A stretch of 64,000 nt of DNA from Pseudomonadota bacterium (lineage in GTDB: Bacteria; Pseudomonadota; Gammaproteobacteria; Burkholderiales; Methylophilaceae). The notes below the pieces were generated by a model. That model saw nothing but the letters and a program-made list of their open reading frames with translations. It was not told the DNA's origin and made no database searches. Below, one piece after another: positions 4,917 through 63,310 of this stretch (position 1 is the first letter of the stretch; every line of letters starts with the position of its first letter). Location of the stretch: contig JAGVMP010000015.1 of the NCBI GenBank assembly GCA_020053735.1, positions 12,708-76,707 of the forward strand, in the 5' to 3' direction. The translations under genes were made by a program, and so were the position numbers.

Positions 4917-4983
4917 ATTTATATTATCCAAAACTTCTTTAAATTTATCTTACTTAGTAAACCGTTACGAGCTACATCAATAC

Positions 4984-5085
4984 AAGGCGCACGGCACACA
5001 GGAACCAGAATGTACGAATAGGTACATGAGGATTCCGAGTACAATTTTAATTAAAAGCCTGCAACACCCAAGTGATGCGGCGCAG
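4984..5085 (+). repeat. Family B repeat
   Basis: aaggcgcacgg..atgtac gaatag gtacat gaggattccgagtac. Confidence 0.8.
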
Positions 5086-8758: not shown

Positions 8759-9067
8759 ATGAAACTAAACACCAAACAAATAGCGCATTTACGCGGCTTA
8801 GCGCATAGCTTAAACCCTGTGGTGATGATAGGCAACAACGGGCTGACCGACAATATTATCAAGGAAATTGAGCTTAATTTAAACGCGCATGAGTTGATTA
8901 AAATTCAAGTGGCGGGCGAGGACCGCGATGCGCGCAAAGCCATCTATGTTGAAATTTGCAGCAAAACCAACGCGGTTGCGGTGCATCACATCGGCAAGCA
9001 GCTGGTCGTTTATCGTGCCAGTGAAACAGTGAAAGAAAAAGCGAAAATTCACATTCCTAAACTATAA
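8759..9067 (+). CDS. yhbY: CRM-domain ribosome assembly RNA-binding protein
   Basis: 'LRGLAHSLNPVVMIG', 'HELIKI', 'IGKQLVVYR'; divergent from rlmE; ATG at 8759. Confidence 0.92.
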   Translation: MKLNTKQIAHLRGLAHSLNPVVMIGNNGLTDNIIKEIELNLNAHELIKIQVAGEDRDARKAIYVEICSKTNAVAVHHIGKQLVVYRASETVKEKAKIHIPKL

Positions 9068-9071
9068 AAAA

Positions 9072-9229
9072 CATGCCCTGCAAACCAATATCCATGCGGC
9101 CTATCAGGCATGAATAACCAGCTTTGACGTGTAAATAACCAACTTTTAGTTGGTATATTTCACGGGCAAGCCAAATACTGGCTTAGCTGGTATATTCTGC
9201 GGGGACAACCCTTGCGGTTGCAGAGCATG
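9072..9229. repeat. Family A long form with nested hairpin modules
   Basis: catgccctgca..gcagagcatg termini; internal duplicated hairpin. Confidence 0.85.
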
Positions 9230-9258
9230 CCTTTTGATGTTGATTTAAAAAGTGCTTT

Positions 9259-17519: not shown

Positions 17520-18602
17520 TTAAAAACCAATCTTCTCTAACATGCGCTCAAAGTAGCCTGGCGCCTCTTCTGGCGGTAATGGTGCTTCTATTTTTTTTGG
17601 TTTAGCCACCGTTTTATTACTAGTAGCATCGCTTTTAATTTCGGCTTCTGGCGCCGCTTCAATTGGTGCTTGTAGGTTATTCAAATCTAGATTTCGATCC
17701 ATTCTGAAAATCAATGGCTCGCCTGCTTTGGCTGCCGGCATAGGCACAGGTGCTTTTGGCTCGTCAGCCTGCGGCGCTTCCACCTGCGGGGCCTCTATGA
17801 GTTGAGGCGTTTCTACAGGCTTTACTTTTTCCGCAGGCGCCGCTTCTGTCACGGGAGCTTCAATTACTGGTGCTGTAATGACAGGCGCTTCTACAGCTGG
17901 TGCGCTAGTCGCAGGCGCATCTAACTTTGGCGCTTCAACTACTGGAACATCAGTTGCTGGCACATCAACTGCAGGTGCATCAGGCGCCAGCACACCACCA
18001 ATTGGCACCGCTAATACAGATGGTACCTCTGTCGTTGGCGCTTCGCCAGCGGGTGCATCTGCACTGCTTGCTGGTGCATCGCCAGCAGGCGCTTGGATAT
18101 TGGCTTCTGGGGCATCAGTTTTTTCTCGCGCGGCGGGCAGCTTCTCATTTTCTTTTGCAGGCTCATCACTTTTCCAGAACTTCAGCTTCTCTGACCAGCT
18201 TTTTTCTTGTTTAGGTTTTGGTTCTACCGTAATGGTTTTCGCAACGCTCGACTCATTGCCAGTAGCCGCCCCAGCTGTGCCCTGTGGCACGACATCACCA
18301 CGTACCTTGGTCAGTAAATCTTTATCAAAATCCAAAATCACACGTCGCTGCTCGACAATTTTGCCTGCTTGACGCAATTGATAAAAATAATCCCAACGGT
18401 CTTTATGAAAGCTATCCACAATGAGTGGCGAGCCCATAATAAATTTGACCTGCGATTTAGTCATGCCAGGCCGCAATTGCAGTAGCATCTTAGAGGTGAC
18501 TACATTACCTTGCTGGATATCCATTTTAAATGGTTTTATGGTAGGAATAGTCGAACCGCAACCAGCCAACAAGAGGGAAAGAACGATTAAAAAATAGCGC
18601 AT
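17520..18602 (-). CDS. bamE: Outer membrane assembly lipoprotein BamE with long Pro/Ala/Glu-rich C-terminal extension
   Basis: Lipobox LLAGC, 'DIQQGN', 'PGMTKSQVKFIMGSP', 'RWDY'; dapB-bamE/fur synteny. Confidence 0.92.
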   Translation of the reverse strand: MRYFLIVLSLLLAGCGSTIPTIKPFKMDIQQGNVVTSKMLLQLRPGMTKSQVKFIMGSPLIVDSFHKDRWDYFYQLRQAGKIVEQRRVILDFDKDLLTKVRGDVVPQGTAGAATGNESSVAKTITVEPKPKQEKSWSEKLKFWKSDEPAKENEKLPAAREKTDAPEANIQAPAGDAPASSADAPAGEAPTTEVPSVLAVPIGGVLAPDAPAVDVPATDVPVVEAPKLDAPATSAPAVEAPVITAPVIEAPVTEAAPAEKVKPVETPQLIEAPQVEAPQADEPKAPVPMPAAKAGEPLIFRMDRNLDLNNLQAPIEAAPEAEIKSDATSNKTVAKPKKIEAPLPPEEAPGYFERMLEKIGF

Positions 18603-22482: not shown

Positions 22483-22682
22483 GGGGAAGACCCTGCGATC
22501 TTATGAGTGCTGAAAGCGCGAGTTCCGCAGCCGACACTCAGATGCGGCGCTAAGACCGAAGGGAGCCAGTATTTGGCTTCCCCACTTTGCTAAGCCACTA
22601 AAGTGGCTAGCAAAGTGTGACGGCAGCGGGGTAGCCTTTTCTTTCCCCTATTTCTTTTGGCTAAGCAAAAGAAATAGGGTCG
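22483..22682 (+). repeat. Family D structured repeat
   Basis: gcgagttccgcagccg .. cctatttcttttg/caaaagaaatagg. Confidence 0.75.
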
Positions 22683-22715: not shown

Positions 22716-22778
22716 AGATTGCTTTGCTTCACTCGCAATGACAAATCAAAATGGATTCCCGCTTTCGCGGGAATGACG
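22716..22778 (-). repeat. Family C tandem units
   Basis: gattgctttgcttcactcgcaatgac plus ggattcccgctttcgcgggaatgacg. Confidence 0.85.
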
Positions 22779-22788
22779 GTGCGGAAGT

Positions 22789-24477
22789 TTAAACCCCCAA
22801 CATCTCTTTGGCATGTTCACGCGTAGTGTCAGTAATTTGAATACCTCCCAACATGCGGGCAATTTCTTCCACCCGTTCGGTTTGGCTTAAGGGTTGAATA
22901 TGACTTAACGTTGCGCCATTGACTTGTGTTTTGCTGACTTGTAAATGCTGTGCAGCTTGCGCGGCGACTTGCGGTAAATGGGTAATCACTAACACTTGGC
23001 GTTCTGCACCGAGTTGTTTCAGCAGTTGCCCTACTACCTCGGCCACACCACCGCCTATGCCCACATCCACCTCATCAAAAATCATACAATCCACATTTTT
23101 ACGATTCGCGCTGCCTTGAGATGCCCCCTGGCCATCGCCAAGTGAATTCAAAGCTAAGGTAACGTGTAGCGCCAAACTGATTCTTGAGAGTTCGCCTCCA
23201 GAAGCCACTTTATTCAATGGGCGCGGCTCCACACCCGCATGCCCTGCCACTAAAAATTCTACGGTTTCTAAACCATTACTTGTCGCCTCACAAGCATTTA
23301 AGGCGACATCAAATCGTCCACCGCTTAATGAAAGGCGCTGCATTTCTGCACTGATTCTTTGGCTTAATGTTTTTGCCGCTTGCTGGCGGTTGCTGCTTAA
23401 TTGTTTAGCTGAAGCTTGATAAGTCGCATAGGCTTCTGCCTCTAGTTTAGCCAGCGCACCATCGTTTGCGAATGTTTCCAGCTGCGCCATCCGCGTTAAA
23501 TCTGCGCTTAGTAAATCAGGCAACTCTTCTGGCTTACTACGGTATTTTCGTGCTGTGTTGTGCACTGCTTGAATGCGATTCTCAACCTCGTTCAGTCGCG
23601 CTGGATCTAACTCTGCACGTTGTAAATAACGGTTTAAACTACGTGAGGCTTCTTCTAACTGGATGATGGCAGAATCCACCTCCTCTGCCGCTTCTTTCAA
23701 TTGCGCATCAAATTCTACTAAGCCAACAAGCTTAGCTTGCACTTGCGCCAACATACTAATGACTGCAGGTTCATTCTCGTCTAAAGCTGCAATACAAGCC
23801 TCTAAACCGCTTAGCAAGCTGGCGCCGTTGGCTAGTTTATGATGCTCGGCCTGCAAATCTTCCCATTCGCTAACCTCAAAATTGAGTTGTTTTAGCTCGC
23901 GCGTTTTATCGCGCAATTCTGCCAGTTCATCCGCATAAGCCGCTGCATTTTTTTCAACCTCTATGCGCTGACGATGTAAATCTACCCAAGTTTTATATTG
24001 CTTGGTGACTTGGCTTGCCAAATCAAGATGTTGTGCAAATTCATCTAAAATTTGGCGCTGTGTATTGATTTTAAGCAGCGAGTGATGCGCGTTTTGGCTA
24101 TAAATATCCACCAATAATTCGCCCAACGCGTTTAGCTGACCAATGGTGACTGCGACGCCGTTAATAAAACCGCGACTGCGGCCATCCGCATAAATAACAC
24201 GCCTGAGAACCAATATTGGTGCGGCCTCCAGGGCAGCTCCTTCAAGCCAAATAGAAGCACTTTCGTTATTTGAAAATGTAGCACTGATATCTGCGCGTTC
24301 CGCACCTGCGCGAATCACGGCACCATCGTTGCGCTCACCCAAGGCCAATGAAAGCGCATCAATCAAGATAGACTTGCCCGCGCCCGTTTCGCCAGTGAGC
24401 GTGGTAAAGCCGCCCGAAAATTCTAGGTCAAGCGTTTCGACAATAATAAAATCACGGATGGATAATGTTTGTAACAT
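22789..24477 (-). CDS. recN: DNA repair protein RecN
   Basis: Walker A 'TGETGAGKS', signature 'ASGGELSR', Walker B 'FDEVD', 'ITHLPQVAA'. Confidence 0.97.
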   Translation of the reverse strand: MLQTLSIRDFIIVETLDLEFSGGFTTLTGETGAGKSILIDALSLALGERNDGAVIRAGAERADISATFSNNESASIWLEGAALEAAPILVLRRVIYADGRSRGFINGVAVTIGQLNALGELLVDIYSQNAHHSLLKINTQRQILDEFAQHLDLASQVTKQYKTWVDLHRQRIEVEKNAAAYADELAELRDKTRELKQLNFEVSEWEDLQAEHHKLANGASLLSGLEACIAALDENEPAVISMLAQVQAKLVGLVEFDAQLKEAAEEVDSAIIQLEEASRSLNRYLQRAELDPARLNEVENRIQAVHNTARKYRSKPEELPDLLSADLTRMAQLETFANDGALAKLEAEAYATYQASAKQLSSNRQQAAKTLSQRISAEMQRLSLSGGRFDVALNACEATSNGLETVEFLVAGHAGVEPRPLNKVASGGELSRISLALHVTLALNSLGDGQGASQGSANRKNVDCMIFDEVDVGIGGGVAEVVGQLLKQLGAERQVLVITHLPQVAAQAAQHLQVSKTQVNGATLSHIQPLSQTERVEEIARMLGGIQITDTTREHAKEMLGV

Positions 24478-25786: not shown

Positions 25787-26800
25787 ATGGATAAACGCGC
25801 GCAAATCTTACTTAAAACCTTGGTAGAACATTACATTAGTGATGGTCAGCCCATTGGCTCGCGCACCCTCTTGCAGCACAGTGGCTTGGATGTAAGCCCT
25901 GCAACGATTCGGAATGTGATGAGCGATTTGGAGCACTTGGGCTTTATCGCCAGCCCGCACACATCAGCCGGACGCATCCCCACACAAAAAGGTTACCGCC
26001 TGTTTGTGGATACCTTGCTGACCGTGCAACCGCTAGAAACCAAAGCGGTAAACCAGTTAAGAAGCGGCTTAAGCTCACCCAACCAAAACGAGCTGATTAA
26101 CAGTGCAGCCGATATGCTGTCACAACTCACCCAGTTTGCTGGTTTGGTAATGATACCCAAGCGTAAAGCTTTAAGTTTCAAGCATTTAGAGTTTCTACCG
26201 CTGACCGAAAAAAGGATATTAGTCATCATCGTCACCAGTGACGGCAACGTGCAAAACCGCATCATTTTGAGTGAAAAGCCATACTCAGCCAGTGAACTCA
26301 CTCAGGCTAGCAACTATTTTAATGCCAATTTTTCTGGCCAAACCTTTGATGAGGTGCAGCAAAAACTGCATACCGAACTCAAACAAATGCAAACAGATAT
26401 GAACGTGTTGATGAACGCCGCCCTGCAGGCCAATATCCATGCGGGTGATGGCAATGGTGTTGTGATAGCGGGTGAACGTAACTTACTGAATATTGACGAA
26501 CTTTCTACCAATGTGAATAGCCTACGCAAATTGTTCGAGATTTTTGAGCGCAGAACCTCGTTGATGCAACTTTTGGACAACAGCCAGCACGCAGAAGGTA
26601 TCCAAATTTTTATCGGTGGCGAAAGTGGTTATCTTCCGTTAGATGAATGCAGCATGGTGACCGCGCCGTATGAGGCCGATGGTCAAGTCGTCGGCACACT
26701 AGGTGTAATAGGTCCGACTAGAATGGCCTATGAACGGGTGATACCGATTGTAGATGTCACAGCAAAATTACTATCAAACGCTCTGAGTTCAGGTGCTTAA
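25787..26800 (+). CDS. hrcA: Heat-inducible transcription repressor HrcA
   Basis: 'PIGSRTL', 'SPATIRNVMSDLE', 'PHTSAGRIPT', 'GVIGPTRMAY'. Confidence 0.97.
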   Translation: MDKRAQILLKTLVEHYISDGQPIGSRTLLQHSGLDVSPATIRNVMSDLEHLGFIASPHTSAGRIPTQKGYRLFVDTLLTVQPLETKAVNQLRSGLSSPNQNELINSAADMLSQLTQFAGLVMIPKRKALSFKHLEFLPLTEKRILVIIVTSDGNVQNRIILSEKPYSASELTQASNYFNANFSGQTFDEVQQKLHTELKQMQTDMNVLMNAALQANIHAGDGNGVVIAGERNLLNIDELSTNVNSLRKLFEIFERRTSLMQLLDNSQHAEGIQIFIGGESGYLPLDECSMVTAPYEADGQVVGTLGVIGPTRMAYERVIPIVDVTAKLLSNALSSGA

Positions 26801-28206: not shown

Positions 28207-28277
28207 GCGTTATAATGCATGGCAATATTGCTTTATTCATGAGGGCTTTTATCAATGCATTATTTGGGTTGCAGTAT

Positions 28278-28358
28278 AAGGCGCACGGAACGCAGAAGCC
28301 GAGATGTACGCAGTTGTACATCGAGGCTACGAGTACCGCGTAACGCAGTAATGCGCCC
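28278..28358 (+). repeat. Family B repeat
   Basis: aaggcgcacggaacgcagaagccgagatgtacgcagttgtacatcgaggctacgagtaccgcgtaacgcag. Confidence 0.85.
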
Positions 28359-29430: not shown

Positions 29431-29523
29431 AAGGCGTACAGCTTTTAAATTGAAGGTCTGCAGAAGCCGAAACAGTATGTTTTATACGGTGAGGTTGCGA
29501 GCACCGCGCAACGCTGTAATGCG
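29431..29523 (+). repeat. Family B repeat
   Basis: aaggcg..gcagaagccga..gtat gtttt atac..gaggttgcgagcaccgcgcaacgctg. Confidence 0.75.
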
Positions 29524-31725: not shown

Positions 31726-32750
31726 TGGCTGACAAAATTCTAGTCCTTGGTCCAGCGTGGGTAGGCGATATGGTACTGGCACAAAGCCTATTTAAAACGC
31801 TCAAACTCAACCGACCTGATTGCATTATTGACGTTGCTGCTCCCGCGTGGACATTGCCTTTACTAGAGCGTATGCCAGAAGTTTCTGGCAAGATTGCTCT
31901 GCCATTTAAACATGGCGAACTGGCTTTTTGGCAGCGCATTCAATTTGGCAAAAGCTTAAAAAATGCAGGTTACAGTCAAGCAATCATTCTCACCAACTCG
32001 TTTAAATCAGCTTTGCTGCCTTGGGCGGCCAGCATAGCAAAACGCACCAGCTTTTTAGGTGAAATGCGCTACGGTTTAATTAACGATATCCGCCCACTTG
32101 ATAAAACCAAGCTCAAAAAAACGGTAGAACGGTTTGTGACACTAGGTTTAGATAAAGATGTATCTTTGCCAAAAACCATTCCAAACCCATACTTAAACAG
32201 TGCCCCAGAAGCCGCATGGATATTGGCTTACAGGCTAGGTGTTTTGGATAATAAGAGTAAAGTGCTGGGCATTTGCCCAGGTGCAGAGTACGGTGAGGCC
32301 AAACGCTGGCCAGCCGAATACTATGCCGAAGTAGCCAATGATGCACTCAAAAAGGGTTGGCAAGTGTTATTGTTTGGGTCAGATAAAGACATGCCAGTAA
32401 CCACTCAAATCAACCAGCTTACGCAAAATAAATGTGTTGATTTAGGTGGCAAAACTAAACTGGGCGAAGCGATAGATTTGATGTCGATTTGCGATACCGT
32501 GATTAGCAACGACTCTGGTTTGATGCATGTGGCCGCCGCGCTAAGTAATGAAACTAGCGCAAAAAAACTCATCGCCATATTTGGCAGCAGCGACCCTTAC
32601 CACACGCCACCTATGCAGCCAGATGCAGTGATAGAATATTTAGGCTTAAGTTGCAGCCCTTGCTTTAAGCGTGAGTGCCCGCTTAAAGATGAGGCGCATT
32701 TAGCTTGCTTAAAAAATATCACGCCGCAGTTGATTGCCACTAAAATTTAG
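31725..32750 (+). CDS. waaF: LPS heptosyltransferase II
   Basis: 'PAWVGDMV', 'PGAEYGEAKRWP', 'NDSGLMHVAAA'. Confidence 0.94.
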   Translation: MADKILVLGPAWVGDMVLAQSLFKTLKLNRPDCIIDVAAPAWTLPLLERMPEVSGKIALPFKHGELAFWQRIQFGKSLKNAGYSQAIILTNSFKSALLPWAASIAKRTSFLGEMRYGLINDIRPLDKTKLKKTVERFVTLGLDKDVSLPKTIPNPYLNSAPEAAWILAYRLGVLDNKSKVLGICPGAEYGEAKRWPAEYYAEVANDALKKGWQVLLFGSDKDMPVTTQINQLTQNKCVDLGGKTKLGEAIDLMSICDTVISNDSGLMHVAAALSNETSAKKLIAIFGSSDPYHTPPMQPDAVIEYLGLSCSPCFKRECPLKDEAHLACLKNITPQLIATKI

Positions 32751-37098: not shown

Positions 37099-38112
37099 TT
37101 ATAGCTTATAGTATTTTTTATACCAAATCGAAAATTTTTCTATCCCAGTTTTCAAGTCTGTGTTTGGTTTAAACCCTACCCACGCCTCTAGTGCGCTAGT
37201 GTCGGCATAAGTCGCTTTTACATCCCCTGCTTGTATGGGTAAAAATTCTTTTTGCGCTTTTCTGTCCAACGCATCCTCTAAAAAACCGATAAAATCGAGT
37301 AGTTTTTCAGGATGATTATTCCCAATATTGAACAGTCTGTAAGGCGCATGGATATTGCCTCCCAGAGCATCGATTTGAGGCATTATAAGTTTGGCTGGTG
37401 GTTTATGTAGCACACGAATGACAGCTTCGACAATGTCGTCGATATAAGTAAAATCGCGCATCATATCGCCATAATTAAACACTTTAATTGGCTTATTGTT
37501 GAGAATAGCATCTGCAAATAAAAATGGCGCCATATCTGGCCTGCCCCATGGCCCATACACAGTAAAGAAGCGTAATCCAGTCGTTGGGATACCATACAGA
37601 TGGCTGTAGGTATGTGCCATCAATTCATTGGCTTTTTTCGTTGCTGCATACAAACTCACGGGGTGATCGACATTATCTGTCTCAGAAAATGGCAATTTAG
37701 TATTGCCGCCGTATACGCTAGATGAGCTTGCATACACCAAATGTTGCGGTTTAATCGCGCGGCACGCCTCTAGCACATTGGTAAACGCAACGATGTTGCT
37801 GCTGATATATGCATGTGGATTTTCGAGCGAGTAACGCACCCCCGCTTGCGCCGCGAGATGAATGACGCTATCTGGATTTTCACCTACAAATAATCGAGCT
37901 GTTGCAAGCTGCTCAGCTAAATCAAGCTTAACAAATTTAAAGTTTTTGGCATTTGGGTGCGCTTGAATGGTTTCAAGTCGCGCTTCTTTTAAACTTAGGT
38001 CGTAATAATCATTCATATTATCGACTCCAACCACGACGTCACCACGTGTCAACAACTGAAGCGCTGTATGAAACCCAATAAATCCTGCTACCCCTGTTAA
38101 TAATACTTTCAT
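37099..38112 (-). CDS. UDP-glucuronate 4-epimerase
   Basis: 'TGVAGFIG', '[11 protein letters not shown]', 'YAATKKANE', '[10 protein letters not shown]'; follows ugd. Confidence 0.88.
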
Positions 38113-42672: not shown

Positions 42673-42709
42673 TGCTAAATCTCAATCAATAAATGCGAGA
42701 AAAAATATC

Positions 42710-43514: not shown

Positions 43515-43542
43515 TGGATTCCCGCCTGCGCGGGAATGACGG
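43515..43542 (-). repeat. Family C single unit
   Basis: tggattcccgcctgcgcgggaatgacgg. Confidence 0.85.
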
Positions 43543-43559
43543 AATGAGAAATACTTGAA

Positions 43560-43661
43560 TTCGGTTTCAAAACACATTGAGACGAGGCATTTGGCCGTAG
43601 ACAGTACGTTTTTGTACGGCAAGGCCAAATAACAAAGTATCAATGTTGTTTTCAAACCGAA
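43560..43661 (+). repeat. Family B repeat with long imperfect terminal IR
   Basis: ttcggtttcaaaacacattga..gacgaggc..gtagacagtac..gtacg..acaaagta..tcaatgttgttttcaaaccgaa. Confidence 0.8.
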
Positions 43662-47394: not shown

Positions 47395-48927
47395 TCATTC
47401 ACTCATCTCTTTATTAGCATAGATCCCCGCTTTAATTAAAATTGCGGGGTCGGGATAAATCACTTTAAATGTTTTCACGAACGCATTATACAGGGCTGGC
47501 TCATTCTGCCAATTTTGCATAAAACGATGCAAATCTTTTAAATGCGCAACACTGCTGGTGAAATGAGTGCGGTGTTGGCGCATGCTATCTAAATCTATCA
47601 GCAATGGCTGCGCACCTTGCATTTTGATGTTGGTGGCTTTCATATCGCCATGCGAAATATGCAGCAGATAAAGTTTGTAAAAAAGCGTTGCAATATTTTT
47701 TACTGCCTCAGCGCGCTGGGATTTATTTTGTGTTTGAGCAAAATATTGGGCAACATCGGGTGCATCAGTATATTCTGCTAAAAAATAAGCTTTGCCTCTA
47801 AACACTCCCAAACTACGATGCTCGATGAGCGCAATTGGCTTTGCTGTTGCAATCTTCAATATTTTAAGCCGATGTGCATTCGCCCATGACGCCGCAGCAC
47901 GGCTTTGACGAAAGGCGCGACTGATGCCATGCCAAAAGTTTTTGATGTTATAGCGCTTAATGACTATCTTTTTATCATCCATTTCTACAAGCGCGACTGT
48001 GCAAGTGTTGCTATTTTTAAGTAGATTCTGAGTACCAATTAACGCATCTAAATCCTCAGTAAAGTCGGTATTTTCCGCATCGCTGGAAGCCAATATCCAT
48101 GCGCCTTTCATGCATGAATAACCAGCTTTAGCTGGTATATTCTGCGGGGACGACCCCTGCGGTTGCAGAGCATACTTTTTCACATCTGTGCACTGCCGAA
48201 AAACTTTTTTATCTGCATAGGCAGATGCTGCCTTGATACGATGTCGCTCAGATAAACGGCTGATATCTGAAGCTACAAGCTCAACACTAGGGTTCGCCAT
48301 GTGATATTGCATTAAAAGTTTAGGCATCCATGCTAAAACCTCGAGCACATCAAATTTGGACAAAAGAACGGCAAAATTTGATGAAGCTTGTTGGTAAGAA
48401 ATAACATCGTATTGGCGAATACCATCGCCATCAATGCTATAAAGTTGCTGACCATCAAACAAAAAGTTTTTAAGATATAAATCTGTTTGCATTAAACGCG
48501 CATGGTGATGCTGACCAAGCGTCTGAGCAAGCATAGAGGCCAACTCTAATCGTTGTGACGCATTACGCTGCACCCATACTGATTCGACATTCTGACTATG
48601 AGGGATAGCTTCAAATATCAATATTTCTGTATCATCAAGCGTGTCAATAAGCAATAATTTTGAAGTGGCGATACTTGCGGCAATGAGTGCGTCCACACCT
48701 TGTTTATCTCTTTGTGCATAGCGCTTAGCGCCATTGCCAATAAACAACTTAGCATACACCGCCTGCCCTTTCCAAACACCTCGGCACACCAAACGCTTAT
48801 TGGCTACTCGACGTACCACTTGCTCCACTATAAGCGCGTCACCATTACTTAGCCAAAGCGAAAATGTTTGATTCTCATCATTTGATAACGCAGACAAATT
48901 GTTTAGCAAAGCGAATTGATCTGCCAT
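47395..48927 (-). CDS. Two-domain LPS kinase (Kdo/WaaP family)
   Basis: Two kinase-like halves ('QTDLYLKNFL..IDGD' and 'HGDMKATNI..IDLD'); start MADQ overlaps upstream stop (TAATG). Confidence 0.8.
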   Translation of the reverse strand: MADQFALLNNLSALSNDENQTFSLWLSNGDALIVEQVVRRVANKRLVCRGVWKGQAVYAKLFIGNGAKRYAQRDKQGVDALIAASIATSKLLLIDTLDDTEILIFEAIPHSQNVESVWVQRNASQRLELASMLAQTLGQHHHARLMQTDLYLKNFLFDGQQLYSIDGDGIRQYDVISYQQASSNFAVLLSKFDVLEVLAWMPKLLMQYHMANPSVELVASDISRLSERHRIKAASAYADKKVFRQCTDVKKYALQPQGSSPQNIPAKAGYSCMKGAWILASSDAENTDFTEDLDALIGTQNLLKNSNTCTVALVEMDDKKIVIKRYNIKNFWHGISRAFRQSRAAASWANAHRLKILKIATAKPIALIEHRSLGVFRGKAYFLAEYTDAPDVAQYFAQTQNKSQRAEAVKNIATLFYKLYLLHISHGDMKATNIKMQGAQPLLIDLDSMRQHRTHFTSSVAHLKDLHRFMQNWQNEPALYNAFVKTFKVIYPDPAILIKAGIYANKEMSE

Positions 48928-50471
48928 TACTTGGATACTATCTTCCATAATGCCCAGCGGCCAATTTGCTTTTCCTGCATCACAACTCCATTTTCTAGTA
49001 CGGGCTTATCTTTGCTCAATAGCCATAATGTTTTATTTACCACCAATAACTGTTCTAGCTGCTTCCCACCCAAAGGCTGGATGGGGCGATTAGCATAAAA
49101 TGACACTGCCCCATCTCCAGGCTTGGCTTGATATAAAGGCTTAGCTTGATAGAGCGCTTGAGACGAAGTTGAATCAATAGCAACTGATTGCACTAGCTGC
49201 TTAATGTCGTCTTTTTCTGTGTCTTTAGTGATGTACTGCTCCGCAAATAAATAAATAAACGTTGCAAATACTGCCGCTAATAAAACAGGTGTCTGAGGAG
49301 CGGGAATATTCAACTCACGTTTTAACAACCAAGGACCAAGCAATAATAAGGGCCAAATCAGAACGGTTGGCAAGCTCAACACATGCGTCAAGCCTTGCTT
49401 ACGTATTCCGACCACAAACAACGCAATCACAGCAATCGCTAATAAGCAAAAAATGACGCGGTTAAATTGATAAAACCTGCCTTGCGCCACTTGTAAATAA
49501 TAGCCGATAAGAATCGCAATCGATGGTAAAAAAAGTAAGGCATATTGCGTTTGTTTGTTAACAGTAAACGTGAGCAACACGAATACGACTAGCAACCAAA
49601 TAATAGAGAAATGCACAACCTTAGGTAACGGTCGATGTTGATACAACCATATACCCGCAGGGACCAACAGCAAACTCCATGGTGCAAAAAACTCTACAGC
49701 ATGCGCTAAATACCAGTAAATCGGCTGCTGATGTGTGCCAGATACAAACGTTTCATCTACCTGACGCGATACAAATTGTTGCGCCACATCTGGCATACTG
49801 ATTAAAATCCATGCATACCATGCAAATGCGCTGACTAAAAAAATCATTATCCCAGTTGGGTTAATGATTGCTTTAACCGTGTGCAATTGTTTAGTCGCAA
49901 ACGCGTAACCCAACACAGTCATTAATGGAATGGCAATGCCCGCAGGGCCTTTTGTCAAAAAACCAAGCCCTAATGCCAGCATGAACAAATAAACTGTTTT
50001 TTTGTTTGGTGACTCAAAAAGCTTGAACCCAGCAAAGCAAGCTAGAGAGACAAAAAACAATAACGTAGCATCCGCCTCAGCACTTCTAAAATAGCGCATC
50101 CCTAAGAAGCTTGTACACATCACCAACACAGCATTCGCTGCGGCTTGAATATTTAAGGTATCTTTTAACCAAATAAACAACAAGCAAGCTGAAAGTAATG
50201 CAAACAAAAGAGAAGGCACGCGTGCTGCCGCCTCACTCACACCAAATAATTTATAGCTAAGCGCAGTCGTCCAATAGGTCAACGGCGGTTTTTGTAAGCG
50301 TAGCTCGCCATTATAGTGTGGCACCACCCAATCATTACGCACCACCATTTCACGTGCGGTCTCAGCTATTCGAGCCTCTTGTATTTTATCAATAGCGCGA
50401 CCCGCTGAGCCAAACAACAAACCAATCAATATAACACTTAACAATCCGACGCTAATTTTCAGCATATACAC
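48927..50471 (-). CDS. Second ArnT-like GT-C glycosyltransferase
   Basis: 'QEARIAETAREM', 'KPPLTYW', 'ARVPS', 'LTKGP'. Confidence 0.85.
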   Translation of the reverse strand: MYMLKISVGLLSVILIGLLFGSAGRAIDKIQEARIAETAREMVVRNDWVVPHYNGELRLQKPPLTYWTTALSYKLFGVSEAAARVPSLLFALLSACLLFIWLKDTLNIQAAANAVLVMCTSFLGMRYFRSAEADATLLFFVSLACFAGFKLFESPNKKTVYLFMLALGLGFLTKGPAGIAIPLMTVLGYAFATKQLHTVKAIINPTGIMIFLVSAFAWYAWILISMPDVAQQFVSRQVDETFVSGTHQQPIYWYLAHAVEFFAPWSLLLVPAGIWLYQHRPLPKVVHFSIIWLLVVFVLLTFTVNKQTQYALLFLPSIAILIGYYLQVAQGRFYQFNRVIFCLLAIAVIALFVVGIRKQGLTHVLSLPTVLIWPLLLLGPWLLKRELNIPAPQTPVLLAAVFATFIYLFAEQYITKDTEKDDIKQLVQSVAIDSTSSQALYQAKPLYQAKPGDGAVSFYANRPIQPLGGKQLEQLLVVNKTLWLLSKDKPVLENGVVMQEKQIGRWALWKIVSK

Positions 50472-50560: not shown

Positions 50561-51430
50561 ATGTTACAAGTCATTTTTAAGCCTCTTAAATACCTATCTC
50601 TAAAGACTATCCATCAATACGGAACGCTTATTGGTCAGTTAGTGTTTTTATTATCTCCACAAATAAAACATCTGGCTTATAACAACTTAAAGCAAAGCAG
50701 CCTGATTAATCAAAAAATGGACTTAAACAAAACAATCCAAATCAACGCTAGGGAATTTGGTAAGTCCATTGTAGAAAGTTTGGCAATGTGGCAAAAAAGT
50801 GAATCTGAGCTGATCTCTTTGGTAAAAAGCTGTTCAAACTGGCATATAGTTGAAGAGGCCTTAAATAAAGGCAAGGGGATTATTTTTCTTACGCCTCATT
50901 TAGGCTGCTTTGAAATTACTTCTATTTATTACGGCAATCAGCACCCCATTACTGTGTTATATCGTCCGCCAAAAATCAAGTGGTTAGAGCGCCTTATTCT
51001 TAATGGCCGTGAGCGCACTGGCGTGACGCTAGCAGCCGCCAATGCCAGTGGTGTGCGTAAACTATTGCAAGCACTAAAACGTGGTGAAGCGATTGGTATT
51101 TTGCCCGACCAGATCCCCGCAGCAGGGGAAGGCGAATGGGCAGATTTTTTTGGCAAACCTGCCTATACTATGAGTTTAGCCAGTAAGCTGGCAGAGAAAA
51201 CGGGTGCAACTGTGATTATGGGCTTTGGCGAGCGCTTAGCACACGGTGCAGGCTACGCGCTGCATTTAAGGAAAATAGACAGCATTGCCACGCCCGCCTT
51301 GCTGAATAAAGCGATTGAACAACAAATTGCCCAAAAACCTAGCCAATATTTGTGGAGTTACAACCGTTACAAAGTGAGAGGCCACGCACTTAAAAAACAT
51401 ACACTTAAAAAAACTCAGCAAGATAATTAG
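50561..51430 (+). CDS. lpxL: Lipid A late acyltransferase (LpxL/HtrB family)
   Basis: 'LTPHLGCFE', 'ILPDQ', 'FFGKPA', 'QYLWSYNRYK'; exact start uncertain (50537-50561). Confidence 0.75.
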   Translation: MLQVIFKPLKYLSLKTIHQYGTLIGQLVFLLSPQIKHLAYNNLKQSSLINQKMDLNKTIQINAREFGKSIVESLAMWQKSESELISLVKSCSNWHIVEEALNKGKGIIFLTPHLGCFEITSIYYGNQHPITVLYRPPKIKWLERLILNGRERTGVTLAAANASGVRKLLQALKRGEAIGILPDQIPAAGEGEWADFFGKPAYTMSLASKLAEKTGATVIMGFGERLAHGAGYALHLRKIDSIATPALLNKAIEQQIAQKPSQYLWSYNRYKVRGHALKKHTLKKTQQDN

Positions 51431-51448
51431 CTGGCTGTAGTAATAAGT

Positions 51449-52279
51449 CTAGTTAATTGCAGATTTTTCTTTGGCTAAACGCTGTTGAAATTTTGTGCTG
51501 TTAAACTTGGCAAATAACTTGTTCGCACGCGCCTCCACTTTTGCCCAAAAAGCAGCTGTTTGTGGTAAATAATGTTGCTTGAATATGCCTAAATCTTGGG
51601 CACCTAGATCTTGCGCACATAGGCCATTTTGCAACATCGAGAAATATAAACCGGCAATGTCTTTCATCACGGCATCACCATTCGGTGACTGATTTTGCAG
51701 CATGCGATGCAAATCGATTAAGTGCAAATCGTAATGATTGGCTGCAGCGTTTTGACGGCTTAGCACAAAATGGCATAGATAAAAATCGCGGTGACACAAA
51801 CCAGCACTGTGTAGTTTGCTGGCAATGTCAGCCACAGCCGTCTGCATTAAGCGTTTAGAATCTTCAAGCATAGGGTAAGACTGGCTATCCATCAGCATTT
51901 CTTCTAACGAGACAATGTCGCCCAAATCTTCCGTTAACACAAAAGATTGCATAGTTGCAGGGTTGCAACCGCGTTGGCCATAAGCCACCAATGGCGTGCT
52001 AGCAATACCTATCTCACTTAACTTTTGTAATGCGCGTACTTCAGTCATGGCGCCTAAAATCGGCAGTTTTAAGCTCAGCAGATTTTTAAAAACCTCACCC
52101 CAACCCACGCCAAAATGCTGTTTGATGAAGTAATATTTTCCGCCAAGCTCGGTACGCATGGTCTTGCGACCAGGTACATCGCGAAATGCCTTGCCTTGCA
52201 ACTGCATGCAAGCTTCAAACACATCGCCTTTTAGATGCGCTGAAATAGCTTCTGGCACATAAAGCACTTGCTTAACCAT
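51449..52279 (-). CDS. waaP: LPS core heptose kinase
   Basis: 'YFIKQH', 'CHRDFYLCHF', 'LIDLHR', 'KDIAGLYFS'; directly after waaG. Confidence 0.85.
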   Translation of the reverse strand: MVKQVLYVPEAISAHLKGDVFEACMQLQGKAFRDVPGRKTMRTELGGKYYFIKQHFGVGWGEVFKNLLSLKLPILGAMTEVRALQKLSEIGIASTPLVAYGQRGCNPATMQSFVLTEDLGDIVSLEEMLMDSQSYPMLEDSKRLMQTAVADIASKLHSAGLCHRDFYLCHFVLSRQNAAANHYDLHLIDLHRMLQNQSPNGDAVMKDIAGLYFSMLQNGLCAQDLGAQDLGIFKQHYLPQTAAFWAKVEARANKLFAKFNSTKFQQRLAKEKSAIN

Positions 52280-54593: not shown

Positions 54594-54689
54594 ATGCCCT
54601 GCAGAGCTCATGAATATTGGGTTTCACGCATGAATAACCAGCTTTAGCTGGTATATTCTGCGGGGACAACCCCTGCGGTTGCAGGGCAT
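54594..54689. repeat. Family A long form (96 bp)
   Basis: TIR atgccctgca/tgcagggcat; internal hairpins accagct/agctggt and gggg/cccc. Confidence 0.9.
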
Positions 54690-55434: not shown

Positions 55435-55528
55435 ATTGTGTCGAGATAGTCAGACGCGAAGTGGTGGCGTAGACAGTACAAGCTAGTACGACAAGCCGCC
55501 ACGACAAAGTATGACTGATTGACACAAG
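55435..55528 (+). repeat. Family B repeat upstream of dnaK
   Basis: gtcagacg..gtagacagtac aagcta gtacgacaag..acaaagtatgac; flanking IR ttgtgtc/gacacaa. Confidence 0.8.
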
Positions 55529-60249: not shown

Positions 60250-60366
60250 TGGATTCTTCACTACACTCAGAATGACAATTCAAAATGGATTCCCGCTTTC
60301 GCACCACAGGCACTCCGATTTACTAAGTGCTTAAGCACTTAGTAAAGTCGTATGCGGGAATGGCGG
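60250..60366 (-). repeat. Family C tandem units, second with an internal insertion
   Basis: ggattc..gaatgac plus ggattcccgctttcgc-[51 bp]-gcgggaatggcgg. Confidence 0.8.
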
Positions 60367-61762: not shown

Positions 61763-61848
61763 CATGCTCTGCGGACTAATACCCCAGGGCACCCTCTCTC
61801 AAACTCACTTCATGAGTTTGACTCACCTTGTATCCATGAGGGTTTCGC
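61763..61848. repeat. Family A copy interrupted by an insertion
   Basis: catgctctgcggactaata..[insert with aaactca/tgagttt hairpin]..tatccatgagggtttc. Confidence 0.6.
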
Positions 61849-62057
61849 ATTCGACTTAGTGCTTTCGCATTGAACTTAGCGCTTTAGCGCTTAGTGAAAT
61901 GGTGAAGACCTTTACGGTCTTAGCACTTAGCGAGAATGGTGATGCCAAGGACTGGTACAGGGCAAGTATTTTTGTTACATCTGCTTACCAATATTTAAGC
62001 CTAGCCTTACATTCCAGTTACATGCGTGCCATCAAGCTGTAACATCCACCACCTATA

Positions 62058-62574: not shown

Positions 62575-62677
62575 ATGCCCTACAAGGCAATATCCATGCG
62601 GGTTTCAGAGCATATATTTTGGCGTATGAATAATGTGCATTTGCACATATATTCTACGGACAAGACCCTTGCGGTCT
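62575..62677. repeat. Family A long-form variant
   Basis: atgccctacaaggcaatatccatgcgggtttcagagcat plus module 2 with atgtgca/tgcacat stem. Confidence 0.85.
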
Positions 62678-62946
62678 TATGTTTCAATTAAACTATTTTG
62701 AATCGCAATTAACTCTGCATTTGCATCACTAAAGTCTTCATATTTTTTGCCGTTTGTTCTAGCATACCAATACTTACTGTTCCACGCATCACCTTCAATT
62801 TTATGTAATACCGCGTGTATCCAATTGGCCATTGGGTCTGAGTAATCTTGCGCAATATTGTGCGACTTGTCCCAATCCCCCTCCAGCGCGACCTGTACTG
62901 CAATTAATAATGCTGGCTTATTCATTCTCTGACTCAAAATAGCCAA
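62677..62946 (-). CDS. Conserved hypothetical protein
   Basis: 'GDWDKSH', 'WIHAVLHKIEGD.WN..YWY'. Confidence 0.65.
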   Translation of the reverse strand: MAILSQRMNKPALLIAVQVALEGDWDKSHNIAQDYSDPMANWIHAVLHKIEGDAWNSKYWYARTNGKKYEDFSDANAELIAIQNSLIET

Positions 62947-63235: not shown

Positions 63236-63310
63236 AAGGCGCAAGGCGCGCAGAAACCGGAATGTATGGGGTATACATGAGGATTGCGAGCACCGCGTAA
63301 CGTAGCAATT
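63236..63310 (+). repeat. Family B repeat
   Basis: aaggcgc x2..ggaatgtat..atacatgaggattgcgagcaccgcgtaacg. Confidence 0.8.

Follow-up and report, generated by a model that had tools for sequence, protein, structure and literature searches.

Repetitive extragenic palindromic sequences (REPs), bacterial interspersed mosaic elements (BIMEs) and bacterial miniature inverted-repeat transposable elements (MITEs) are abundant, and for many of them no mobilising enzyme or target rule is known. The REP/BIME sequences and the REPINs of Escherichia coli and Pseudomonas are mobilised by RAYT transposases, which are Y1 enzymes of the HUH type (PMC3333891, PMC3116915, PMC3733652); the stem positions of REPs vary between copies but stay complementary, mismatches and bulges matter (PMC3333891), and intragenic copies are known (PMC3733652). 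RAYT binding and cleavage require a conserved tetranucleotide tag, GTAG or CGTC, at the hairpin's 5' foot (PMC3333891, PMC3733652), and for the CGTC-tagged REPs neither a mobilising enzyme nor a target rule is known (PMC3733652). In such systems the RAYT gene is single-copy and lies between cognate repeats in inverted orientation. The repeats considered here lie in a 64,000-nt stretch of a Methylophilaceae contig (JAGVMP010000015.1, positions 12,708 to 76,707), hereafter the window, to which all coordinates refer. The 158-nt repeat at 9072-9229 of the window is a small palindrome, of a type named family A, hit by a 57-60-nt two-hairpin element, hereafter the unit, which has a copy of its own kind in its hairpin loop. 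This architecture likely reflects nested insertions of a mobile-type miniature element.

The units and family A resemble REPs, BIMEs and REPINs in being short, high-copy, mostly extragenic imperfect palindromes; moreover, the stems of the unit vary yet stay complementary, mosaics with other motifs are formed, occasional intragenic copies occur and RAYT genes are present in the same genus. However, neither strand of the unit, which starts with G[G/A]CGTRTGAATAA, or of family A, which starts with ATGCCCTGCAAGCC, has the GTAG/CGTC tag, the RAYT genes are flanked by GTAGGAGCG REPINs and not by units or family A, and the unit is made of two hairpins and is not a REP doublet. To our knowledge, self-nesting into apical loops has not been described for REPs.

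A second term of comparison is given by IS200/IS605 and the palindrome-associated transposable elements (PATEs). The unit has no terminal inverted repeats, bears subterminal hairpins at both ends and seems to insert 3' of a short sequence resembling its own 3' end, with no obvious target duplication, although a 2-bp one is compatible with the junctions; the IS200/IS605 mechanism (PMC3333891) would account for these PATE-like features. Conversely, hairpins 1 and 2 of the unit are dissimilar, no TnpA or autonomous copy is linked to it, no strand bias was detected in a test of low power, and its target seems to be a T-run on a hairpin, in place of the fixed tetra- or pentanucleotide. Some insertion sequences are also known to target REP hairpins, such as IS1397 and ISKpn1, which enter the REP loop, and ISPpu9 and the IS110 family (PMC1525189, PMC8450116). 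Like them, the units home into palindromic repeats, including the loops of GTAG-tagged REPs; unlike them, the unit is not a full-length, protein-coding element, but a 60-nt non-coding one that also targets its own kind. By analogy, the units would work most like REP/REPIN or IS200/IS605-derived miniature elements, and as mosaics they would be BIME-like, while they lack the defining features of REP-RAYT systems (tag and RAYT flanking) and of classical MITEs and Correia elements (inverted ends). No description was found in the literature of these repeats in Methylophilaceae or Methylotenera, or of a 60-nt non-coding element homing into hairpin loops including its own. The family presents an unusually clear target rule (after a T-run on a hairpin, its own loop included), clean covariation, and natural filled and unfilled sites, one of them intragenic.

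Composite repeat at 9072-9229 and unit anatomy

All parts of the composite are read on the plus strand. The family-A part (9073-9099) is made up of the 5' arm ATGCCCTGCAAACC (9073-9086), the loop AATATCCATGC (9087-9097), which is conserved, and GG, with which the 3' arm starts. It is followed by the left half of a host unit of the B type (9103-9125, ..ATCAGGCATGAATAACCAGCTTT), which ends in the TTT of the hairpin-1 apical loop and whose start is placed within ~2 nt by analogy with 40 uninterrupted B units. The nested 59-nt unit occupies 9126-9184, as defined by a match to the covariance model R1, by contig junctions and by the occurrence of the same nested form at the unrelated loci L131 and L157 (loci outside the window are designated by L numbers). 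Its hairpin 1 lies at 9128-9164 (CGTG-t-AAATA-a-CCAAC..GTTGG-ta-TATTT-CACG), with the innermost hairpin ACCAACT-TTT-AGTTGGT at 9138-9154, and its hairpin 2 at 9168-9184 is AAGCCAAATACTGGCTT (AAGCCA-AATAC-TGGCTT), the reverse complement of which is found at 22565-22581. The right half of the host unit then resumes at 9185-9219, with AGCTGGTATATTC, TGCGGGGA and a hairpin 2 of its own (CAACC-CTTGC-GGTT). The remainder of the family-A 3' arm (GCAGAGCAT, 9220-9228) closes the outer stem with 9073-9083, and from here the right flank is near-identical to L003.

Deletion of the 59 nt at 9126-9184 restores GAATAACCAGCTTTAGCTGGTATATTC, identical to uninterrupted copies. Indeed, the nested unit splits the host exactly between GAATAACCAGCTTT and AGCTGGTATATTC, and metagenome contigs of other copies join across the same gap, 59/60 nt being skipped with a 2-nt (TT) ambiguity. 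In the predicted fold of 9072-9229, an outer stem CATGCCCTGCAA/TTGCAGAGCATG encloses an inner stem GAATAACCAGCT/AGCTGGTATATTC, whose loop holds two hairpins; z is -6.1 as DNA and -5.7 (+) or -5.6 (-) as RNA, with a folding energy of -63 to -65 kcal/mol as RNA, and 0/200 shuffles are as stable. The nested fold suggested by a first-pass annotation of this DNA is thus borne out, and the hairpins that it quoted are all in place (ACCAGCT, ATGTGCA and ACCAACT stems, AAGCCAAATACTGGCTT with its reverse complement, and an inverted core at 54605-54619). It had also described a second hairpin and AAGCCAAATACTGGCTT as two modules inserted into the loop of the first; insertion into a TTTA loop is what is seen, but the inserted sequences are the two hairpins of one 59-nt unit.

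The unit (57-60 nt) consists of G[G/A]CGTRTGAATAA, a variable stem, TATATTCYACGGRCAAG and hairpin 2 (AAGnnn-loop-nnnCTT). Hairpin 1 is long and imperfect, CGTG-t-GAATA-a-(free stem of 5-6 bp)-TTTA loop-(stem')-ta-TATTC-CACG, and is joined by a linker GG(A/G)C to the 6-bp hairpin 2, AAGnnn-5 nt-nnnCTT. The sequences 9126-9184, 62621-62678 and the B part of the long forms of family A are homologous and share the bulged hairpin 1 CGYR-t-RAATA-a-stem-loop-stem-ta-TATTY-YRCG, a short linker and a 5-6-bp hairpin 2 ending in YTT. The ends of the unit (GGCGTG.. and ..TGGCTT) are not inverted repeats. What had been called the module-2 hairpin is hairpin 1 of this two-hairpin unit.

Metagenomes were scanned with a pattern in which the flanks were fixed, 13-17 nt were left free and the stem was unconstrained, and 81 loci were returned; together with the window and loci from metagenome-assembled genomes (MAGs) they gave 87 matches and 74 distinct sequences, which form the alignment A4. 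At least 18 different inner stems were found, all perfectly complementary (CCAGC, CCAAC, TGCGC, TGAGC, TGTGC, TCCGC, TCTGC, GGCAA, TGGGA, TTTGC and others). In hairpin 1, 99.5% of the cells are paired and 7/15 pairs are changed on both sides: pair 19-33 is GC in 39 copies and CG in 33, while pair 20-32 is CG in 33, AU in 29, UA in 11 and GC in 1, and is never unpaired. The whole-structure covariation score is 0.339, against 0.122 +/- 0.007 for shuffles, none of which (0/500) reaches 0.339, and when the partners are slid by 1-3 columns pairing falls to 23-42%. Covariation from G-C to A-T is seen also at the outer pairs 10-42 and 12-41, which were free to vary in the pattern, and hairpin 2 covaries as well (pairs 52-63 and 54-61; CCA/TGG, ACC/GGT, CCC/GGG). 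The evidence is decisive: the module-2 hairpin conserves pairing, not sequence. The proposal that its stems differ while their pairing is kept holds in the 74 copies, and the covariation on which the first-pass annotation had staked it is found in this larger alignment.

The cause of this conservation is a separate question. Selection on a folded single-stranded DNA or RNA had been proposed; pairing is indeed conserved, but besides selection, correction of palindromes by template switching could contribute to it. Carried further, the covariation would be mechanical, the elements spreading as proposed here and their stems being matched by intrastrand template switching, by hairpin mismatch correction or by replacement of one subfamily by another through re-insertion. 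Template-switch correction of quasi-palindromes is an established process, and at orthologous sites downstream of one conserved gene (L158, L163, L176, L177, L202, L216, L217) the inner stems differ at 2-5 positions, all compensated, on an identical scaffold and beside a coding flank that differs by only ~10-25%, which is faster than stepwise compensatory evolution. However, the bulged bases (t, a, ta) and the outer stem are invariant in A4, where indiscriminate correction would erase the bulges; the covariation extends to the outer pairs 10-42 and 12-41 beside them; and one-sided changes in hairpin 1 are rare, which fits purifying loss of unpaired copies. A purely mechanical origin of the pairing is, on balance, unlikely.

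Mismatches in hairpin 1 are more often G-T (31) than A-C (13), a weak hint that one particular strand folds. Columns 6 and 47 of A4 (window 9127 and 9166, for example) co-vary in a non-Watson-Crick manner, linking the first bases with the linker: nested units nearly always have GA..CACGGGCAAG and free-standing ones GG..CACGGACAAG, which may reflect subfamily linkage or a functional contact.

Insertion sites, long forms and genomic placement

At least 23/79 non-redundant units are bracketed by the halves of a host hairpin split after the loop TTT, and in 18 of these the halves close with 6/6 pairs. The hosts are other units (CCAGC, TCTGC, TGAGC, TGTGC and TGCGC stems), GTAG-tagged REPs (GTAGGTCGGCC..GGCCGA; L173, L189, L200, L203), a dRS3-like palindrome (L213, L237) and hairpins of other kinds (L162, L170, L204). 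Further units follow the T-run of a terminator-like hairpin (L181, L208, L230) or a family-A hairpin with its T-run (62621 in the window; L126, L179, L190, L215, L228), and some lie inside Correia-like repeats (L169, L199, L212, L222). The base that precedes G[G/A]CGT is T in 74/74 aligned copies, usually within YTT or TTT. Triple stacks occur at L192, L197 and L218, and no relation is apparent, among the 79 non-redundant units, between the inner stems of a nested unit and those of its host. The places that units precisely occupy are the TTTA loops of other units or of unrelated hairpins, the family-A 3' arm and the stretch just after terminator T-runs, which supports an architecture built by a hairpin-recognising process; a structure-dependent insertion rule is well supported. 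The earlier view that modules are shuffled by a structure-specific mechanism can be kept as regards recognition of hairpins, but what moves is the whole 57-60-nt two-hairpin unit and not single modules. Group IIC introns and integron attC sites offer a likeness in principle only, in that a hairpin or terminator structure is recognised and a variable paired core goes with conserved flanking boxes and extrahelical bases; in contrast to them, the unit has no intron domains, its consensus lacks the RYYYAAC/GTTRRRY boxes, and no cassette or integrase context is found in the window.

The short form of family A is a palindrome of ~39 nt, ATGCCCTGCAAGCC-AATATCCATGC-GGCTTGCAGGGCAT, in which the loop is conserved and the stems are imperfect and variable. 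The 40 copies of the long form (window and MAG loci) have the family-A 5' arm and loop, then a nearly invariant right part, TTTCACGCATGAATAA-CCAGCT-TY-AGCTGG-TATATTCTGCGGGGACAACCCTTGCGGTT, and then GCAGGGCAT. The simplest account is that a 57-nt B-type element entered the palindromic A stem on either strand, just past the GGCTT in its 3' arm. Among the long forms, 13 have a plus-oriented A loop and 10 a minus-oriented one, the other 17 being too degenerate to call; with a palindromic family-A stem, entry of the unit into the 3' arm on either strand would give both orientations. The core at 54594 that had been described as inverted (GCTCATGAATATTGG, 54605-54619) is therefore a common state: the opposite orientation of the A loop is real, but with a palindromic stem no inversion mechanism is needed.

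Four other composites of the window, all on the plus strand, illustrate these arrangements. The long form at 48078-48173 has the A arm and loop at 48078-48102, a 57-nt B unit at 48108-48164 and the rest of the A arm at 48165-48173. In the one at 54594-54689 (z = -5.2 on folding) the A loop is opposite (TCATGAATATT, 54608-54618), the B unit lies at 54624-54680 and the A-arm rest at 54681-54689; the hairpin ACCAGCT-TT-AGCTGGT is present in both, at 48121-48136 and 54637-54652. The 62575 copy had been counted as a family-A long form as well, but in this composite (62575-62678) the unit is outside family A: a complete family-A hairpin (62575-62613) and a 7-nt spacer, ATATTTT, precede a free-standing unit at 62621-62678, with inner stem TGTGC/GCACA, the hairpin ATGTGCA-TT-TGCACAT at 62633-62648 and hairpin 2 AAGACC/GGTCTT. 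Finally, 61764-61965 is a doubly nested long form, with the A 5' arm and an A loop that contains a hairpin element of 50 nt (61782-61831); then comes a diverged unit (61846-61865 and 61921-61956), with a further unit (61866-61920) in its TTT loop. The 50-nt element, CCCCAGGG..CAAACTCAC-TTCA-TGAGTTTG..CCTTGT, lies between AATA and TCCATGA of the A loop and is found also in L125 and L128.

Several of these sites are differently occupied in related genomes. The yhbY/DUF4149 spacer holds the 158-nt composite in the window and a short A hairpin only in L001 and L003 (~90% identical strains); the orthologous L149 spacers lack the short forms seen at 42699 and 45595; and at the 62575 and 61860 sites L137 has differently built composites between well-aligned flanks. 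These elements mark intergenic hot spots with a faster turnover than the flanking genes. The clearest, direct filled-versus-unfilled case is a two-domain InaA/Kdo-kinase gene (47395-48948, minus strand), where the long form 48078-48173 lies antisense and in frame in the interdomain linker. The insert amounts to 19 residues (QPQGSSPQNIPAKAGYSCM), and most homologues are ~19 residues shorter. The orthologues at L239 and L240 have the family-A hairpin only, in frame and encoding ..SWILVC.., while the window and L149 kinases (84% protein identity) have the family-A hairpin plus exactly 57 nt (19 codons). These elements can fuse into coding sequences, adding peptide segments. Toleration of palindromic repeats in frame within genes recalls the Rickettsia palindromic elements, which differ in that sequence and host are unrelated; here few of the copies are intragenic, and toleration is limited to the single frame without stops. 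Family-A-like cores were seen within other long open reading frames (ORFs), at 32201-32245, 18078-18122, 26422-26446, 24188-24235 and 37333-37377, in genes for a waaF-like heptosyltransferase, a low-complexity BamE tail, HrcA, RecN and an epimerase, whose translations repeat W-I-L (TGGATATTGG); they may be real in-frame insertions, or chance or degenerate matches.

The placement of the units bears on whether they act as RNA. If they were structured RNAs (small RNAs, hairpins associated with terminators, or elements that stabilise 3'-UTRs), their covariation would record selection on an RNA fold, with spread as a secondary matter. The RNA folds are strong, as given above for 9072-9229 (z about -5.6), some G-U pairs are tolerated, family-A hairpins often bear an A-run or a T-run like bidirectional terminators, and most units are placed 3' of a gene or in a convergent spacer (31 intergenic units convergent, against 8 divergent). 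However, between co-directional genes 12 units are sense and 15 antisense, with no bias relative to transcription, and in a crude ORF census the 13 intragenic units are all antisense to the mRNA and none is sense. In our own reading of the sequence the sense strand of the unit has stops in all three frames; on the antisense strand of the B unit a single frame is open, the one used in the kinase gene. Among the RNA sequencing runs searched, the best word share with this strain was 0.20, and the metatranscriptome contigs did not extend over the element. No window match to the Rfam 15 covariance models reaches the gathering score, and over 9050-9250, with E up to 10, only a chance miRNA match appears (E = 2.1). 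Moreover, the unit has no T-run of its own, and precise self-nesting with insertion in unrelated hairpins is behaviour of DNA. An RNA element as the primary entity is consequently a distinctly improbable explanation; the orientation counts, the excess in convergent spacers, the lack of Rfam matches and the precise nesting, taken together, favour a selfish element acting at the DNA level, secondary effects on transcripts being possible.

A promoter or terminator role of these repeats was considered separately. A consensus scan around 9072 gave nothing above chance, and the A-run and T-run flanks of family A proved, in our reading, inconsistent with the direction of the neighbouring genes.

Proposed mechanism and candidate enzyme

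The long forms are probably composite DNA derived from successive, hairpin-guided insertions of a small non-autonomous element, for which HUH/Y1-type chemistry appears the most likely. In the proposed mechanism, a unit would insert directly 3' of a T, usually of YTT or TTT, displayed on or beside a hairpin. Four kinds of site are observed: the TTTA apical loop of another unit (as for 9126-9184), the loops of unrelated hairpins, the T-run that follows a hairpin (as for 62621) and, in the 39-nt family-A palindrome, GGCTT of its 3' arm, insertion at which would generate the long forms at 9072, 48079 and 54594. Entry of the family-A stem on either strand would produce both loop orientations. Hairpin 1 would have to fold to be recognised, so that the free inner stem would keep its pairing through any drift or turnover of its sequence. 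The most likely chemistry would be a single-strand 'peel and paste' reaction by an enzyme of the HUH/Y1 type provided in trans, RAYT or IS200/IS605-like. Active mobility of the units, a single-stranded DNA substrate and the HUH/Y1 class of the enzyme are what we infer.

The HUH idea comes from anatomy, namely the lack of inverted ends, the hairpins at both ends, a target that resembles the unit's own YTT 3' end and the preference for single-stranded sites on hairpins. E. coli TnpA-REP requires the GTAG tag and a stem mismatch and cuts between C and T, and IS200/IS605 elements find their cleavage sites by means of a guide sequence located 5' of the foot of the hairpin (PMC3333891); the units have conserved bulges and no GTAG. 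A phmmer search with IS200 TnpA and E. coli RAYT as queries, covering 742 kb of window and loci, retrieved a single Y1_Tnp/RAYT, at L171, beside a stack of units. Y1 transposases do exist in the genus, since many homologues are named Methylotenera RAYT; in seven contexts the RAYT is a single gene at a conserved aroB-dgt-RAYT-(parE/phd)-porin locus, and its flanks (L171, L241-L252) are classical GTAGGAGCG..CGCGAA REPs/REPINs, whose inner stems differ between lineages. Units near RAYT genes occur only as inserts, some of them inside the flanking REPs (L252). That a HUH transposase of the RAYT/IS200 type might be flanked by the ends of these repeats, as had been suggested, is not borne out by the Methylotenera RAYT genes found, around which GTAG REPs lie; RAYT was therefore rejected as a demonstrated partner and retained only as a candidate class. 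Altogether, a HUH/Y1 enzyme may tentatively be proposed as the agent of the insertions, by analogy with the systems above.

A number of observations weigh against insertion by such an enzyme, or against mobility in general. Neither family A nor units form the termini of the RAYT genes at L171 and L241-L252, loci that do not include the window's own lineage, and GTAGGAGCG occurs 0 times in the window and 0 times in the MAG loci that carry units (220 kb). In 742 kb of window and loci, neither a gene with hairpin 1 at one end and hairpin 2 at the other nor an autonomous Y1 TnpA relative with unit ends was found, and no transposase-like translation, DDE included, is recognisable among the window ORFs. 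The two ends of an IS200/IS605 element have hairpins that resemble one another, which is not true of hairpins 1 and 2 of the unit; IS200/IS605 elements also prefer the lagging-strand template, and no orientation bias of the units was detected by GC skew (45 positive and 34 negative on the unit strand, p = 0.31), in what is a weak test on 8-kb fragments. The 2-nt TT ambiguity of the junctions is compatible with a 2-bp TT target duplication. Some stacks hold only the left half of the outer unit (L218, L238), which simple insertion does not explain. Finally, the comparisons of filled and empty sites include no excision and no near-identical strain pair, so that recent movement of the units is only putative.

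The TT ambiguity leads to the possibility that a DDE transposase moves the units in double-stranded form, as it would any ordinary MITE, and duplicates 2 bp (TT) of the target; hairpins would then be preferred only for being AT-rich or bent. The notation TT(element)TT fits the junctions, the same genomes contain Correia-like MITEs, and the long forms have 11-nt inverted ends, ATGCCCTGCAA/TTGCAGGGCAT. These ends, however, are those of the family-A palindrome and not of the unit, whose own ends are not inverted repeats, at variance with classical MITEs, which bear terminal inverted repeats and a target-site duplication of fixed length; moreover, the CTT of the 3' end pairs with the invariant AAG in the hairpin-2 stem and is therefore internal, not part of a duplication, and no DDE transposase is seen in the window. 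This origin is very improbable. Equally improbable is the absence of any transposition, in which case dispersed repeats would form mosaics through gene conversion and recombination, homologous or illegitimate, a proposal made for arrays of BIMEs and of neisserial intergenic mosaic elements (NIMEs): in the 9072 composite, divergence from L003 is greater in the left half than in the right flank, which looks like the exchange of a segment, whole stacks recur as blocks at different loci (L171, L218 and L238; L131, L157 and window 9072) and some outer units are incomplete, but insertion always after the loop T-run, in hosts of unrelated stem sequence, and the clean gain of 57 nt inside a coding sequence would be left unexplained.

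Beyond the hairpin-guided insertion of a non-autonomous element, a broader hypothesis can be put forward, although it is rather doubtful: the units might represent an undescribed class of non-autonomous single-stranded DNA elements homing into the T-rich loops or tails of any extruded DNA hairpin (REPs, terminators, their own hairpin 1) and giving rise to 'Russian-doll' stacks, possibly through a RAYT-derived enzyme that reads the bulged scaffold and ignores the apical stem. If true, this would be a natural system for structure-guided DNA insertion. Which enzyme reads the bulged hairpin scaffold and inserts DNA into hairpin loops is a question that these sites make testable.

Repeat census and other families of the window

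The window has a G+C content of 44%, and its translated genes are ordinary housekeeping ones (ftsH, folP, glmM, carAB, greA, dapB, fur, recN, lipopolysaccharide (LPS)-core genes and grpE-dnaK-dnaJ). An exact scan with TATATTCTGCGGGGACNACCC, one genome per species, gave 33 loci, 33/33 of them in Methylotenera or Methylophilaceae MAGs, and the repeat family is therefore restricted to this lineage. The window contains, per its 64 kb, ~14 family-A hairpins (both strands) and 7 units, and in a sediment metagenome the depth over the repeat is hundreds of times that of the single-copy flank. Units break Methylophilaceae metagenome assemblies, most related contigs ending at or near one of them.

The flanks of the module-2 hairpin define the pattern ATGAATAA-N10-40-TATATTCTRCGG; the window has 3 matches to it, where 0.00 would be expected by chance. 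The covariance model R1, built from A4, detects 4 strong and 2 weaker units: 62617-62682 (80.8 bits), 9122-9188 (79.8 bits, E 1e-14), 54621-54686 (57.8 bits), 48105-48170 (55.5 bits), 22559-22623 on the minus strand (27.7 bits, E 7e-4) and 61862-61925 (27.0 bits). The unit at 22559-22623, which had been assigned to a separate family D, is a diverged one, where hairpin 1 has another sequence and the TTTA loop and hairpin 2 (CCAAATACTGG) are unchanged. A scan of viral contigs with the 15-nt core of family A returned, among the matches listed, single and probably chance ones, and more specific patterns were used instead; L079, an IMG/VR contig classed as viral, has two family-A core matches 88 nt apart (641-743).

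Other repeat families are present at 4978-5042, 28272-28352, 29475-29520, 63264-63309, 43596-43645 and 55468-55517. Some of the other window families resemble the Neisseria Correia core (..GCCGTAC..GTACTGTCT..). The ends of Correia elements are inverted repeats of 26 bp (TATAGTGGATTAA..), with duplication of TA. As betaproteobacterial intergenic miniature repeats with long and short forms, the units and family A are similar to Correia elements (also known as Neisseria miniature insertion sequences, NEMIS) and to NIME/dRS3 of Neisseria, and Correia- and dRS3-like sequences co-occur with them in the window and in related contigs; however, the unit and family A have no Correia ends and the unit has no TA duplication. 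Since units are inserted inside Correia-like elements, as reported above for four loci, the two constitute separate families. A stretch of 841 nt amid the LPS-core genes, 51430-52272, is without any ORF of >=70 aa. The dRS3-like palindromes, ATTCCCGC-N-GCGGGAAT, are found at 22755-22774, 43518-43537 and 60277-60313, with conserved flanks AAATGGATTCCCGC..GGGAATGACGG.

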